IMG/VR virus record: IMGVR_UViG_3300045993_000562
Coordinates: 1-64,000 of that record
DNA length: 64,000 nt
Origin: a virus
Strand: one strand, 5' to 3'
Made by a program: the position numbers and the translations under genes. The stretch's first letter is position 1, and each line of letters opens with the position of its first letter. The notes beneath the pieces were generated by a model. The model saw nothing but the letters and a program-made list of their open reading frames with translations, did no database searches and was not told the origin of the DNA. Shown piece after piece: positions 23,656-51,224 of the stretch.

Positions 23656-25251
23656 TTATTGTTTTGTTAAGATGATTGCTTCAATCTCTGCTTGGGTTAC
23701 ACCTCTATGTACTACTTCGGCGTTACCCCAAGAGGTTCCTATCTCAGCTTCAACTCCGATTGGAATATCTAACCATGGGAAAAACTCCATAGGCCAATCG
23801 TTCATGTATTTGAATCCAGCCTCTACTGCTGCTGCTGCATTGTGGAGAGGAACCTCCCATTCACAGCTGTCGAAAACAGTGCATATTGCCTTACCTCCTA
23901 ATGGCTTCATTCCACTGTTATTCAATTCAGCGAATGCCACCAAACCTAGCGTGGATGTGGGACTTTGAATGTATGCGTTTTGGGAATTTCTCAAGGCTGC
24001 GTTATAGGCTGCAGTCTTTCGAAAGCAATCTAGAGTCCCATACTCTTGCCTCCTTTGACCGAATGGTGTAACTATTCTCTGATTAAGTTTAGCCTGCATA
24101 TGTACAGTCTCAATAAAGGTCTTTACCTTTGGAAACTTATCAAAGTATAGGTTTATCAGCCCCTTAGCCTCATCCTCTGAAATGTTCAGGCCTACTGCAA
24201 TACCTTTGGCACTAGATCCATAGACTATACCGAATCCAACAGCCTTAGCACCCTGCCTTAGTTGTTTATACCTAGAGTTTTCCTTGGCCGTCTTATCTTT
24301 TAGTACAGCCTTAAACTCATCATATGGCACACCCAACATTGATGAGGCCGTAAAGGTATGGAAGTCGAAACCTTTAAAACAGGCCTCTTTCATGGCATCA
24401 TCTCCAGATAAACATGCTAGAATTTTCATTTCAGCACTGGAGAAATCGAACAATATCATTACGTTACCTGGCTCTACATCGTAACAATCACGGATGTTGT
24501 ACCCGTGTTTAGGTCTAGGTATCTGAGTAAGGTTGGGTTCCCCACCAGTTATCCTAAAAGAACTGGTACCATGTAAGAAGTAGCCGGGGTGCAGTCTAGA
24601 ATCATGTTTTACGAAGTCGTCAATGTAGTTCGTAATGAACATGTTTTTTGAGGAGTTGATATCTTTTAACTTCGCTAGCCATGCTAGATATTGATGATCT
24701 GGGTTCTTGGGTATGTAATTACCAGGCTCTTTAGGGTCTATGCCTGCTAGAAGTAGGAGGGCGTCCCCATCGGTACTAGGTTCACCGGAGGTTGTTGTAT
24801 ATGGGGCTATAAAGTTCTTCTCGCCGTATAAGAACTTCTGCATTTCTATCCCAGAAGAGTAGTTTATCTCTCTACCTATCATTTTGAAAACCCCATCCTC
24901 TAGTATGGCAATTTCTTCAGCCATACTAGTATTGATTCTACGGTTCTCAGCCTTGTTGTAGTGTAATCCATTGATCTCTAAATCTAAAATGTAATCCAGA
25001 GTTTTCAACGTCACATCTTCATTAACATCAATAAGGGCTGGCATGTTGACCTTGTTAAAGGTATCCCCACTTACACTCTCAATGAACTCAGGCCTCTCTA
25101 TCAACCTAGGAAACACTTTAGAAAGCAACCTGCTGGTCGCTATACAATCTAGCCCAGCATAGAGGTTCAGCTTATCGTATTCGAAATCCTCATACGTCCT
25201 ATAGACTGGTTTGGTTTCAGCTTTCGCTTCCCCCGTTTGAATCACTGCCAT
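23656..25251 (-). CDS. polA: Family A DNA polymerase, ExoIII plus polymerase domain
   Basis: YAGLD (ExoIII), PNLTQIP, DFSSAE, RQGAKAVGFGIVYG, TVFDS; own AAGGAG RBS before ATG at 25251. Confidence 0.9.
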   Translation of the reverse strand: MAVIQTGEAKAETKPVYRTYEDFEYDKLNLYAGLDCIATSRLLSKVFPRLIERPEFIESVSGDTFNKVNMPALIDVNEDVTLKTLDYILDLEINGLHYNKAENRRINTSMAEEIAILEDGVFKMIGREINYSSGIEMQKFLYGEKNFIAPYTTTSGEPSTDGDALLLLAGIDPKEPGNYIPKNPDHQYLAWLAKLKDINSSKNMFITNYIDDFVKHDSRLHPGYFLHGTSSFRITGGEPNLTQIPRPKHGYNIRDCYDVEPGNVMILFDFSSAEMKILACLSGDDAMKEACFKGFDFHTFTASSMLGVPYDEFKAVLKDKTAKENSRYKQLRQGAKAVGFGIVYGSSAKGIAVGLNISEDEAKGLINLYFDKFPKVKTFIETVHMQAKLNQRIVTPFGQRRQEYGTLDCFRKTAAYNAALRNSQNAYIQSPTSTLGLVAFAELNNSGMKPLGGKAICTVFDSCEWEVPLHNAAAAVEAGFKYMNDWPMEFFPWLDIPIGVEAEIGTSWGNAEVVHRGVTQAEIEAIILTKQ

Positions 25252-26557
25252 CTTCACTTTCTCCTTCTTCGTTTTCATCCTCACCCTCAGTTGTTCCAGG
25301 GGCAGTACTTCTACCTTTGGTCAACTTTGGTAATAGATTTTCATATCCGCCAATACTTAGTTCGGGGGCGAAATCCCAAATTGCAGTTTTAAGAGAGAAC
25401 GTCCCTTGGGCACCGCTATCCAAATCATGCAAAAGAAGCATGGTATCGAACTTTACCCCTTGTAGTCTTATACCCGTAGTATGGAAAATCATTAAAATAT
25501 CAAACTTGATATTATGACCAACCTTATACATAAGAGGATCTAAAAGAACTGGTGCCAATAAAGCCCAAGCTTCATCAGGGTCATAGTAGGTGTTACCACT
25601 ATGCCATAATGGAATTACCACTGCTTTATAGATAGGCTCACCATTCTTGTCGCAGCTAGTACCGTCCCTCCAACCGAATTGAATAGTCAGAAGCTTAGCG
25701 TCTATAGCCATAGGATCCAAACCATTCGTCTCCGTGTCAATCGAGGTTATAGATCCAGTACCGCTGAAACTGGCCAACTTCGCAACAGCTTCACGAACGT
25801 CTTCAATGCTTTGACATATTGAGATATTCCGAACCTGAGCCTGTACGCCTTCCTCCAACGTCAGTAACTTCAAATCGCCACGTGCAAGCCTGGCTGCCTT
25901 CTCGAAGTCTCTACGAATTACCTCGAAGTAGTCATAGCTCCACATAGCCCCAGATGCGTTCTGACGAATCATTGTCAGTGCTTTAGGATGTAGTGTGATA
26001 ACTACTTGACTACCCAATGCATTAGTAATCTCTCCTCGGTTACCGGTATTAGAATGCTTCAACAATCCTAAGGCCTTAGTTACAGCCGTAGTTAGGCTGA
26101 TGATCACTTTAGGTTTAGTGCGTTCAATCTCACCTAAAAGATAAGGCCTACACTTCATCAACGTTCTCTGTGATGGAGACTTTCCTTTAGGGAAGTTCTT
26201 TAAGTCATTAGGACACTTAAGCAAACTTACTACTTGATACGTTAATTGTCCAAACCCAGCCTTATCGGCTAACGTCTGAATGATACCTTTGTTAATTATC
26301 TCTCTTTGATCGTCTCTATAGTCGTACTTACCTCTGAGTTCAGGATGGTCCTGGATTATCAGAATGTCAACCGGCTTATTCAAAAGGGAAACCTTGGAGG
26401 GATTCTTACATGGGAGAATACATACCTTCTCACAGTAAGTCTTAGATAAAGAAGAGAAGTCTTCCTTAGCTAATATTGCAATCTCCACCGATGGCGTCAT
26501 CTTAGGTTTAGCGTACAACTCGTCTAGAGGCAAATCTTTCGTTGTTAATCTTGCCAT
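25217..26557 (-). CDS. Family A polymerase N-terminal subunit: UDG-like plus 3'-5' exonuclease (ExoI/II)
   Basis: KC..CRPYLLGEIERTKPKVIISL..TLHP (UDG family 4-like); DTETNGL, GHNIKFD, DTML; acidic tail. Confidence 0.85.
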   Translation of the reverse strand: MARLTTKDLPLDELYAKPKMTPSVEIAILAKEDFSSLSKTYCEKVCILPCKNPSKVSLLNKPVDILIIQDHPELRGKYDYRDDQREIINKGIIQTLADKAGFGQLTYQVVSLLKCPNDLKNFPKGKSPSQRTLMKCRPYLLGEIERTKPKVIISLTTAVTKALGLLKHSNTGNRGEITNALGSQVVITLHPKALTMIRQNASGAMWSYDYFEVIRRDFEKAARLARGDLKLLTLEEGVQAQVRNISICQSIEDVREAVAKLASFSGTGSITSIDTETNGLDPMAIDAKLLTIQFGWRDGTSCDKNGEPIYKAVVIPLWHSGNTYYDPDEAWALLAPVLLDPLMYKVGHNIKFDILMIFHTTGIRLQGVKFDTMLLLHDLDSGAQGTFSLKTAIWDFAPELSIGGYENLLPKLTKGRSTAPGTTEGEDENEEGESEDGSDSNGGSES

Positions 26558-26773
26558 TATTAGACTCCATTTAATTAAAAAGAGGGTACCCAAATCGCCA
26601 TGACTTGGATACCCCGAGGCTCTCATTGCTCTAGGAGGAGATTTTGAGCCAGTTGCTTTTTCCGGAAATCCAGATCTGCAACATGAAGACATTTGCCGTT
26701 GGGAGAAACAGCATCCTTCTTCACACTATACTTATACCACAAAACCACTACTTTGTTTAACCAAAATAAGGCT

Positions 26774-46964: not shown

Positions 46965-47904
46965 TTTGTTTATTCCTAGGAAAAAATGAAAGAAGATGTA
47001 CCTCAACCTAAAGAAGAAGTACCTTTTACAGCCTCTGTACAGAGGTATGAGAGTGTTTATGTCCCATACTGTGTTATACCACCATACATAGGAATATTGA
47101 ATTAAGAAACGAGTTGTTCTGAAGCGATTTTGATTAGTTGAGGTATGGACGCTATTGAATCTATGACCTCCAGTACGGCTCCGTCTGTCATATACACTAC
47201 AGTTCCTTTACCAGAGCCCTTAATAGGTGCCATAGCCCTCAATATATGATCAGTGTTAATCAGGAACGCTTCTCCTCCTACTAAATGCATAGTCACCAGC
47301 ATGTTACTCTCCTAATGCAAGCTCAGCCACTCTGGCGAAAGCTTTATCTACGTTATGTTTAACCTGCTCATCCGTAAGCTCACCGTTACCTCTACGGTGT
47401 GAATACGACCAATTACCTATGGCGTCCAGAATCTCCACAATCTTAGCTGGATGCAGACTCACCTCTCGGTAAAGCTGTATTCTGTGCATCAAACCCTCTA
47501 GCACAGAGTTATGGTATTTCAGTTCTTCTATGTCTAGTCCCATGTTTAACCCTTTTAACTAAAAGAAGATGTTAGTCAGCCACGATGTTCTGTGGCCGCC
47601 TCAGCCTGGCTTATGGATTTCCAGCGTCCGCCCAATAGTCGCAACACAACTGGATTCGTTAACAATAAGGTTCGTCGCCTTCCTCGTCAGGTTTCGTCGG
47701 CGTGAAGAATGACAATTTTACCAGAAAGACTAGAGCAGAGATGACCAGAACTGACACTACTACGGCTAGAACTATATGTCTAGTGCTGAGATCCCAAGTA
47801 GCCATCCATACAGCTACTATGAAAGCTACTAGTAGTCCTAGTAATACTCTGGCTCCTTCTTGGGTACTTTCATAAATCGGTTCCATATATTTCTCCTAAA
47901 TTTA

Positions 47905-48231
47905 GAGTGACGAAGGTGTGCTATTACGCCAAAAAGCTCTAAGGGTCTCTACCGGCATCCCCCACTATTACTCTGCTGCTACCCTATAGTGAAGTTAAGT
48001 ATTTATGCAAATGTTCCGCTCGGTTGCTAGATCCACCGACCAAACCGGTAAAACTGTATAGATGCTAACTTTGTCCGCTTGCGCTGGCGAGTTAGTACCA
48101 TATCCTTCCCCCGCAGTTATACGATGGTATATCAGCCGTGATATTATCCCCCGTCGAGGTATCTTACCCCATACGATCTGCTTGCTACTCATTAAAGATG
48201 GCTGCCTCTAAGCCAACTACCTACGCCACTC
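47905..48231 (-). ncRNA. RNA mimicking 23S rRNA helices 43-44 (L11/GTPase-associated centre)
   Basis: GTTGGCTTAGAGGCAGCCATCTTTAA...GCGTAATAGCACAC enclosed by the GAGTGGCGTAGGT/ACCTTCGTCACTC stem. Confidence 0.75.
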
Positions 48232-48279
48232 ACGTAAATACCTTGGAGTACTTACGTGAGTAGTGTGTTATTAAAAATC

Positions 48280-48580
48280 AAATGGGCCGGGATCATTATC
48301 ACCCAGCCCACTCTATTCTAGCTCTGGTTAGAAACCGCTAGACAGGTTCCGCTTAGGCTTGTGCAGCCCATGCTCCTTGCGAGTCGTTTGCAGGTATTTT
48401 ACTTTTGCCATTTACGTCGGTCAACTGACGATTCCATCGAATGTTAGTAATACTAGATCGAGTCTGTATCTGGCCCATTAAGAAGACCCCTTGGTAAGAG
48501 TCTTTTTGGTGGACCGGCCGGGGTACTGCCCCCCGGGTCTCCAATATCTTTCGCATTCAATGCTTTACAGGTTACCCTGT
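48280..48580 (-). ncRNA. ssrA: Permuted (two-piece) tmRNA, tag ANDSQGAWAAQA (outer ends approximate)
   Basis: Acceptor 3' piece ...CCGGGGGGCAGTACCCCGGCCGGTCCACCA (CCA at 48507-48509) precedes 5' GGGCCAG (48476); G3-U70 pair; tag ORF 48353-48391. Confidence 0.85.
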
Positions 48581-49900: not shown

Positions 49901-50605
49901 GAGTTTCACCGGTTTTGTATCTTTAAAACAACTTCTGCTGAATCATAGGCTTCGTCGTCAGTGCAACCCTCAGCTTTTGGAATATTGCTATCCCTAATTG
50001 CTTAGAAGGTCGTGACTTCATAACCGATGACATCTTGCTTATTTGCTTGAATCTTGGATCCAGTATCGTTGCCATTTCAACCTCATGTTAAAGTGTTGTT
50101 CATTGCAAGATACTTATACCAAGACTAGGGGTGAAAATTTAATCCAGATTAGAGGGGTATGACGGAGGGACAAATGTTCCCTTTAATTCTGTGCCCTTCA
50201 ACACTTTCCCAATACTCTCCAGCACCTTACCCATCTCCTCATAAGAGGTAGGTACATTTGCACTGAAACCAATTTGCATACCGGCGATGGAGATTTTCCA
50301 ACGCACGGTCTCATCCACCTTGATGTTGAGATCAGGTAGATAAGAGTTGATGCGGCGGTTGATTATCACTGATAACAATTGTAGGACTTTCATGTCGAAC
50401 CATTGCGCCAGTCTCTTTGCTAAATTGCCCATAGGCTCTCCTATACATTGCCATTGCAAACGTTTCGTTGTCAGGGATACACAGTCTCCTGTGTAACTCC
50501 TGCTCTTCTCTTTTGTGCCCCTCTAAAATATCTAGATGTAAAATAAAGAGTTTCTTAATACCTTGACTAGCTATACTGTGTGTCATTGTTTATACCTCTG
50601 AAGTG

Positions 50606-50687
50606 TGCCGGGGACAGGATTCGAACCTGCATGCCAAAAGGCGACGAGGCTTAAACTCGTTGCGTCTACCAGTTCCGCCACCCCGGC
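50606..50687 (-). tRNA. tRNA-Leu(TAA), CCA not encoded
   Basis: ACGAG-TTTAAGC-CTCGT with Leu-type D-arm and variable arm. Confidence 0.88.
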
Positions 50688-51149: not shown

Positions 51150-51224
51150 TGGTGTCCTCGACGGGAATTGAACCCATACCTAGCCCTTAGGAGGGGCTTG
51201 TTGTATCCATTCAACTACAAGGAC
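51150..51224 (-). tRNA. tRNA-Arg(CCT)
   Basis: AGCCC-CTCCTAA-GGGCT, CCA. Confidence 0.88.

Follow-up and report, generated by a model that had tools for sequence, protein, structure and literature searches.

A free-standing phage RNA resembling the GTPase-associated centre of 23S ribosomal RNA

The GTPase-associated centre of 23S ribosomal RNA (rRNA), which comprises the top of helix 42 (H42) together with H43 and H44 (Escherichia coli positions 1051-1108), is the 58-nucleotide (nt) domain bound by the ribosomal protein uL11 and by thiostrepton. Imitation of rRNA in messenger RNA (mRNA) leaders is a known regulatory principle, and phages are known to carry transfer RNAs (tRNAs), transfer-messenger RNA (tmRNA) and a few ribosomal proteins. 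The RNA interface of the uL11 C-terminal domain encompasses nucleotides 1058-1060, 1062-1065, 1075-1083 and 1088 (PMC1802607). Here, a 327-nt element is described that reproduces this centre at positions 48231-47905 on the minus strand of the window, that is, of the whole 64,000-nt stretch analysed, which is taken from IMG/VR virus record IMGVR_UViG_3300045993_000562. The record, 76 kb in length and 43% complete, stems from an uncultured wetland phage.

An original prediction, made from the letters of the window, had regarded this locus as an RNA mimic of H43-H44. Its observation is confirmed by the present analysis, while its interpretation is supported in part. The element belongs to a large family of phage RNAs and constitutes a widespread, strongly selected and free-standing copy of a functional rRNA domain, which is undescribed in Rfam 15 and in the searchable literature. 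It is best explained as a stable non-coding RNA gene.

Layout of the element and its phage family

Read directly from the window sequence in the 5' to 3' direction, the element consists of GAGUGGCGUAGG, UA, GUUGGCUUAGAGGCAGCCAUC, UUUAAU, GAGU, an insert, UUUUG, GCGUAAUAGC, ACA and CCUUCGUCACUC. The strings and coordinates predicted for a likeness to 23S positions 1051-1108 proved exact on the minus strand, with GGUAGUUGGCUUAGAGGCAGCCAUCUUUAAUGAG at 48221-48188 and GGCGUAAUAGCACAC at 47930-47916, and are accompanied by a covariance-model match at 47904-48228. The H43 mimic (48196-48219, minus strand, equivalent to E. coli ~1057-1080) carries the A1067 loop GGCUUAGAGGCAGCC; within it, GUUGGCUUAGAGGCAGCCAUC is the counterpart of E. 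coli 23S positions 1059-1079, and this 21-mer fits the pattern GTTGGCTTAGARGCAGCCATC, which also matches true 23S genes. It is followed by the junction, UUAAU and GAGU (48187-48195, minus strand, E. coli ~1082-1090), as assigned from a table of junction classes, whereas the H44 hairpin GCGUAAUAGC (1091-1100) and the subsequent ACA (1101-1103) occupy 47917-47929 on the same strand and are identified by their conservation in the family. Chance does not account for the resemblance to the 23S centre; even with two mismatches allowed, only 0.13 occurrences of the 15-mer GGCTTAGARGCAGCC would be expected in the window, where it is found once.

The two ends of the element form a closing helix of their own. 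Its 5' strand, GAGUGGCGUAGG (48220-48231, minus strand), is equivalent to the top of H42 and pairs with the 3' strand, CCUUCGUCACUC (47905-47916, minus strand), at 11 of 12 positions. A private stem had been foreseen, albeit with 13 base pairs (bp); the stem is there, but its 12 positions comprise ten Watson-Crick pairs, one G-U pair and one U-U mismatch. Directly upstream, at 48228-48261 on the minus strand, lies a perfect 10-bp hairpin, ACUCACGUAA ... UUACGUGAGU, whose 3' arm overlaps the first four nt (GAGU) of the closing helix, so that the two structures are mutually exclusive there; this hairpin may mark a site of processing or act as a switch in folding.

Between the equivalents of U1090 and G1091, the mimic is split by an insert that had been estimated at about 250 nt and measures 252 nt (47935-48186, minus strand), bounded by GAGU (48190-48187) and by the linker UUUUG (47934-47930), which leads to the H44 hairpin and reads UUUG in the family consensus. 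At its base, AGC (48186-48184) pairs with GCU (47937-47935) in a helix that covaries within the family, and 264 nt separate the end of the H43 21-mer from the 3' motif. Plain minimum-free-energy folding of the element yielded a z-score of -0.2, a measure that is uninformative for a multi-domain RNA.

Searches for a known RNA family gave no assignment. At gathering thresholds, only the tmRNA and the tRNAs match in the window, and at E<=10 over 47700-48400 Rfam 15 returned only chance-level fragments of small nucleolar RNAs and RAGATH-12, outside or across the element; the suggested identity with RAGATH-18 thus found no match in this range. A description of the family was likewise not found in the searchable literature, including the 224-motif paper that defines the RAGATH motifs. 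Three more familiar assignments were considered and rejected. A fragment of a 23S gene or pseudogene does not agree with the unrelated flanks, which lack H45 and the CCAGG...CUGG of H41/H42, or with the interruption of H44 by 257 nt. A group I intron has no Intron_gpI match at E<=10, and its would-be exons constitute a self-closed 70-nt domain without an rRNA gene. A protein-coding reading conflicts with the insert subfamily to which the window belongs (see below), throughout which no conserved open reading frame (ORF) runs, the stop-free stretches amounting to 33-70 codons in inconsistent frames.

The size of the phage family became apparent from two motif scans of IMG/VR, from which at least 147 distinct elements were extracted, with inserts of 53-377 nt. 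The H43 21-mer is present in 114 loci, only three of which continue as true 23S rRNA, while the others proceed to the junction, GAGU and a variable insert; the 3' motif UUGGCGUAnnAGCACAC alone retrieved at least 119 loci. A covariance model (R1) was built from a MAFFT alignment (A2) of 40 diverse members, none of which belongs to the subclass of the window. It matches nearly all loci newly brought in by the UUGGCGUAnnAGCACAC scan, mostly at full length, and scores the window element at full length with 65.4 bits (E 2.5e-20, model positions 1-178) as its sole match in 64 kb. The window element also displays each of the family traits, namely the closing helix, the insert helix, a U-rich linker ending in G, GCGUAnnAGC and A1101. 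The model also finds true 23S centres, in matches of 70 nt and 45-62 bits, which shows that the fold of the phage family is that of the rRNA domain.

Unannotated intergenic copies occur in cultured phages, including Cronobacter phage GAP32, Pectobacterium phage CBB, Serratia phage BF and several Erwinia and Yersinia jumbo phages, furthermore Xanthomonas phages XacN1, XbC2 and XaC1, Aeromonas phage 4_4572, Paenibacillus phage Pd_22F, a Vibrio phage, and Pseudomonas phages pf16, Astolliot, Milchi and UNO-G1W1. In GAP32, XacN1 and 4_4572, exactly one match to the covariance model was obtained per whole genome. Among cellular genome contigs, all 120 matches to the family pattern were true rRNA genes, the pattern also fitting 23S rRNA of the Gram-positive type (AAAGAGU GCGUAA), so that a lack of the element in cellular chromosomes does not follow from this result. 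A blastn search with the GAP32-type element, a narrow test with one type of query, gave no match among 5,426 E. coli genomes and, among plasmids, only rRNA-like pieces of 39 nt. Judged by DNA polymerase, the wetland phage has its nearest cultured relatives in Salmonella phage Arash, at 48% identity, and in Vibrio phage D69. As both are devoid of the element, the latter is an accessory gene of patchy distribution. In the window, the family A DNA polymerase itself is split into two overlapping ORFs (23656-26692), and in Arash and D69 it is likewise in pieces with small ORFs between them.

The structure of the element is under selection. Covariation across homologs, which had been named beforehand as the test that could expose a decaying fragment, is strong. 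Among the 122 elements with a standard junction, nine positions of the closing helix are paired in 84-100% of members, and most of these positions display all four Watson-Crick types. In the same elements, pair 1057-1081 switches between A-U and C-G, and pair 1058-1080 makes use of all four types. The pair 1082-1086, known as a tertiary pair of the rRNA domain, spans a turn of 3 nt and occurs as U-A (60 elements), C-G (42) or A-U (14); position 1056 varies along with it, being G alongside U-A and A alongside C-G. In a separate test of the closing helix, 7.96 of 10 positions are paired as compared with 4.94 when partners are shuffled. The base helix of the insert comprises 3-5 bp, of which the first three are paired in 96-100% of members with all pair types, and averages 4.1 consecutive pairs as opposed to 2.4 in a matched control. 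Over the whole of alignment A2, 93.5% of cells are paired as against 70.1% in shuffles, compensatory changes are found at 18 of 25 pairs, and the covariation score of 0.594 compares with 0.144 in shuffled alignments (0 of 500 as high) and with at most 0.175 in slid controls.

Conservation against true 23S rRNA, junction variant and insert subfamily

Conservation within the family was taken from sets unbiased for the region examined (for the 3' region, from elements anchored on the 5' motif only) and was compared with 92 distinct true 23S sequences. In the latter, the helix below the domain reads as the conserved CCAGG/CUGG, U1090 lies opposite U1101, and both the insert and the UUUG linker are absent. 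In the phage family, on the contrary, the closing helix is free in sequence, position 1101 is A in 100% of members and thus gives a U1090-A1101 pair, and the U, U, U and G of the linker are conserved at 99, 99, 92 and 91%. Because of these family-specific invariants and the covariation, a decaying or recent capture of rRNA is excluded. Moreover, since the helix that leads into the L10 site of rRNA is not conserved, an L10(L12)n site is unlikely, and the uL10 binding contained in the original prediction is not supported.

With regard to the domain proper, UAA 1083-1085 and GAGU 1087-1090 are invariant in the family, and positions 1059, 1060, 1063, 1071, 1072, 1075, 1077, 1079, 1084, 1085 and 1087-1089 are conserved at ~99-100%, all of these being present in the window. 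Nucleotides of the uL11 interface are for the most part conserved at 88-100%, with U1078 lower, or change solely by covariation. In the H44 loop, G1093, U1094 and A1098 reach 99-100% and A1095 94%. The pocket is relaxed elsewhere: A1067 is retained in 83%, G1068 in 68% and A1070 in 79% of members, position 1096 is A in 65% and G in 33% as opposed to A in 100% of the 92 true 23S sequences, and position 1097 is free. Hence, the nucleotides of the fold and of uL11 recognition are kept while the pocket of translation factors and thiostrepton is relaxed, a pattern more readily explained by selection acting on the fold and on uL11 binding than by selection on factor contacts. The extra domain enters at a constant point, beside the helix junction at the base of H44 and far from both loops, and would presumably leave the uL11 face and the loop cleft accessible.

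The window element departs from the standard junction. Its junction comprises 6 nt (UUUAAU) as compared with the usual 7 nt, H43 lacks one pair, and a register shift of one (+1) in the closing helix places the G at the 1056 equivalent opposite C1104, with which it pairs. The shifted register is found in 10 of the 147 elements, nearly all with a short junction, and the two features are read here as a coordinated junction variant.

The insert of the window belongs to a subfamily that it shares with XacN1, CBB, GAP32, BF and several uncultured phages, and which the pattern GACCCTTAGAG...TTGGCGTA retrieved from 12 IMG/VR loci, including CBB, GAP32 and BF. Common to this subfamily are a 3-bp base helix, the motif GGGGAAGGA, and RYRCAGU followed by a helix of 8-11 bp, whose partner strand sits immediately 5' of GACCCUUAGAG. 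This long-range helix is present in 10 of 12 members, among them XacN1, CBB, GAP32 and BF, and its sequence differs from member to member. Its strands in the window are UUUACCGGU (48044-48052, minus strand), directly after UACAGU, and GCCGGUAGA (47948-47956, minus strand), which pair over 9 bp. The signature motif ACCCUUAGAGC, recognised by alignment and pattern search, lies at 47936-47946, and the conserved motif GGGGGAAGGA at 48103-48112, both on the minus strand; the latter corresponds to a GGGGAAGR pattern in 10 of the 12 members. In constrained folding, ACCCU could pair with either of two G-runs. In comparison with its relatives, the window insert contains extra hairpins inside the domain.

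Other parts of the family differ in their inserts. One further subfamily (L001, L005, L011, L016, L017, L078, L086, L089, L100, L103, L333 and others) ends with a conserved CACCCCGUAAnUGGUAAGG module, in which CC-GUAAnU-GG represents a hexaloop hairpin reminiscent of the H44 loop. Some members (L122, L144, L153, L170, L171, L173, L194, L202, L203 and L342) bear a second insertion in the 3' strand of H43 after GCAGCCA, consisting of a hairpin that often has a loop of the UGAGCAA type. The domain therefore tolerates expansion at two sites.

Genomic context and expression

Upstream of the element and on the same strand, a permuted, two-piece tmRNA gene is situated at 48359-48568 (minus strand; Rfam tmRNA_permuted, 73 bits, E 4e-12), which ends 128 nt before the element; two tRNA genes (50605-50687 and 51150-51224, minus strand) lie further upstream. 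The adjacency to a tmRNA, which had been pointed out beforehand, accordingly applies to the window but not to the family, in which a tmRNA is found at 5 of 147 loci and tRNA arrays are the general context. A tRNA is present within 500 nt of 82 of the 147 elements, in 54 of them within 300 nt downstream, and 864 of the 865 tRNAs at these loci are encoded on the strand of the element. This tRNA context on the same strand lends good support to both the assigned strand and the identity as a stable RNA. After the tmRNA gene, at 48274-48303 on the minus strand, a GC-rich hairpin, GGGCUGGG...CCCGGCCC, is followed by AUUUGAUUUUU and looks like a putative intrinsic terminator between tmRNA and element; the consensus terminator scan did not list this hairpin.

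Downstream, a 75-codon ORF (47886-47659) for a protein of membrane type starts 19 nt past the closing helix, with AGGAG ~10 nt past the element. A conserved protein partner in cis was not found, the most frequent neighbouring protein cluster, which is HNH-like, occurring at 11 of 147 loci. In XacN1 (L332), the gene directly upstream of the element (2331-2981) carries the annotation 2'-5' RNA ligase and has a Pfam RNA_ligase match with E 6e-26, and in five loci of the L025 group a CCA-adding enzyme is encoded ~110 nt downstream. Homologues of uL11, bL12 and RelA/SpoT are not encoded in the 76-kb, 43% complete record of the window, nor is a uL11 gene present in any of five carrier genomes, all five of which are complete or nearly so; any uL11 involved would therefore be that of the host.

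As to expression, a wastewater library labelled as RNA-Seq cDNA contains a 151-nt contig that matches 48022-48171 inside the insert with 97% identity and four differences. It is a weak hint of expression, as DNA carry-over is possible and the contig shows neither the ends nor the strand of a transcript. A piece similar to 48022-48171 is also held by a freshwater metagenome, and close relatives of the element therefore live in other waters.

Candidate functions and comparison with known systems

According to the reading preferred here, to which a probability of roughly 0.55 is given, the element would act as an off-ribosome RNA that binds host uL11 and thereby competes with or imitates the stalk base. 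Its two ends, joined by the private closing helix, yield a free-standing replica of the 58-nt uL11-binding domain composed of H43, junction and H44, in which the 5' strand of H44 receives a variable extra domain close to the helix junction and at a distance from the two loops. Transcribed together with the stable-RNA genes of the phage (tmRNA and tRNAs), such an RNA could bind host uL11 off the ribosome and hence represent a competing copy of the ribosomal stalk base. Candidate benefits would be the blunting of uL11-dependent signalling, for instance of RelA activation, or the absorption of something aimed at the site.

Several points weigh against uL11 binding as the function. A free RNA would hardly be able to withdraw uL11 from assembled ribosomes, which number in the tens of thousands, and sponging up only the free protein offers little clear gain. 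The invariants that are foreign to rRNA, namely the UUUG linker, A1101 and the extra junction helix, could change the uL11 site or give rise to a different one. In the subclass of the window the junction is rearranged, with one nt fewer, the shifted register and U/U/U replacing the G/U/A triple. Moreover, the large conserved insert suggests a further function that binding of uL11 does not cover, and among the RNA sequencing runs on record, none holds the stretch.

A more elaborate version of uL11 binding, which is tentative and considerably less probable than uL11 binding as such, would accommodate the insert. A free miniature stalk base would load host uL11 and, by means of its insert, intercept a host factor or defence effector that reads or attacks the site, such as RelA-type alarmone signalling or a toxin. 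If so, the phages would counter host defences by imitating a functional centre of the ribosome, much as phage tRNAs take the place of host tRNAs that have been cleaved.

The alternative that survives best, though it is unlikely, regards the element as a decoy or sink for an attacker of the ribosomal centre and not for uL11 itself, which would spare the ribosomes by an excess of target. The attacker could be a thiopeptide antibiotic, or a toxin that modifies or cleaves RNA and comes from a competitor or a defence system. At least one natural toxin for exactly this site exists, namely Tre23, which ADP-ribosylates H44 of 23S rRNA at ~1095-1098 and impairs the GTPase activity of EF-G (PMC8661411), and thiopeptides, whose binding to the A1067/A1095 cleft counts in favour of such a sink, provide another agent (PMC1802607). 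In addition, elements of the family lie among genes for tRNAs, an RNA ligase and a CCA-adding enzyme. Neighbourhoods of this kind typically belong to phage systems that repair or replace components of translation. On the other hand, conservation within the mimic is lowest at the very positions targeted (free at 1096 and 1097, 83% for A1067), and the searchable literature yielded no anti-phage system aimed at the site. Furthermore, an enzyme turns over, and a substrate decoy would thus protect only in proportion to its excess, whereas thiopeptides hardly enter Gram-negative hosts, which many of the carriers infect.

Less probable still is the view of the centre-like module, with or without uL11, as merely a very stable, nuclease-resistant chassis or an address tag for the insert, which would be the working part (here 252 nt). 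This would account for the conserved motifs and the covarying 8-11 bp long-range helix that the window subfamily holds in its insert, for the different conserved modules of other subfamilies, such as CACCCCGUAAnUGGUAAGG, and for the constancy of the insertion point. Yet it is the mimic of the centre which remains constant throughout the family, while the inserts (53-377 nt) are unrelated between subfamilies, and a mere scaffold would not require loop sequences and tertiary covariation specific to rRNA to be preserved with such precision.

That the RNA titrates a factor which docks at the stalk base, such as RelA, EF-G or another translational GTPase, off the ribosomes is improbable. Both cleft-forming loops are kept in most members (A1067 83%, A1095 94%), EF-G reportedly binds oligonucleotides that copy the domain in vitro, and activation of RelA needs uL11. 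The factor-contact positions, however, are relaxed in comparison with rRNA, and the affinity of these factors rests on far more of the ribosome than this domain. A sarcin-ricin hairpin of the AGUACGAGAGGACC type is absent from the window element (<=4 mismatches) and from the 147 elements (<=2 mismatches), and titration of EF-G, which is as abundant as ribosomes, appears implausible.

The location of the 75-codon ORF (47886-47659), which starts 19 nt after the closing helix, together with the principle of rRNA mimicry in mRNA leaders, could suggest that the element is a 5' untranslated region that controls this ORF through binding of uL11. Such control in cis is very improbable for the family, given that the downstream neighbour is mostly a tRNA or an unrelated ORF (a tRNA lies within 300 nt in 54 of 147 loci), that no protein cluster recurs in more than 11 of 147 loci, and that no leader family of Rfam matches. 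A ribosomal-protein leader in particular was rejected, as the downstream ORF encodes a 75-amino-acid membrane-type protein, the record contains no L11 or L12 gene and the neighbours are not conserved. Finally, a captured, decaying and functionless piece of host 23S rRNA, possibly with an intron, to which the near-identity over ~50 nt might point, can be dismissed in view of the strong covariation, the family-specific A1101 and UUUG linker, the freedom of the closing helix from CCAGG/CUGG, inserts and flanks with only chance-level matches to further rRNA, the lack of a group I intron or other Rfam match, and the hundreds of independent phage contigs that carry the element.

Provided that uL11 is bound, or that an agent directed at the stalk base is intercepted, the family would represent a new viral route to manipulate translation or the stringent response, and the RNA would provide a natural variant, with a four-way junction, of an RNA-protein domain that is among the best studied. 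As the insert type of the window occurs in cultured, tractable phages (GAP32, CBB, BF and XacN1), the question is directly testable. New in the present analysis are the junction subclass with shifted register, the insert subfamily in cultured jumbo phages, the relaxation of the pocket relative to true 23S rRNA, and carriers without uL11 genes.

Among known systems, the RAGATH-18 motif and other orphan motifs of Rfam are likewise structured RNAs of mobile elements with unknown function, none of which matches the element. The closest counterpart is the GTPase-associated centre itself, with which the element shares the loop and stem of H43, the UAA junction, GAGU and GCGUAAUAGC, as well as the same tertiary covariation of 1082-1086 with 1056 in step. 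Unlike the rRNA domain, however, the phage element stands alone, outside any rRNA gene and with a free closing helix, and bears a 252-nt domain and UUUUG between 1090 and 1091. It also features a U1090-A1101 pair where rRNA has U.U (A-U in E. coli), positions 1067, 1068, 1070, 1096 and 1097 are relaxed, and the junction of the window is one nt shorter and shifted in register.

The leaders of ribosomal-protein mRNAs, of which L10_leader (RF00557) imitates the stalk-base rRNA and binds L10(L12)n, resemble the element in being off-ribosome RNAs that imitate the rRNA site of a protein, presumably for binding the same protein. These leaders, however, act in cis in cellular ribosomal-protein mRNAs and show a loose likeness to rRNA, whereas the phage element resides in tRNA arrays, follows the rRNA nearly letter for letter and precedes no ribosomal-protein gene. 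With phage tRNA arrays and tmRNA, the element has in common the neighbourhood, the strand and the character of a copy of a host translation component in large lytic phages. While phage tRNAs and tmRNA are complete working molecules, the element corresponds to one excised domain of a 2.9-kb rRNA, which is unable to work in the ribosome.

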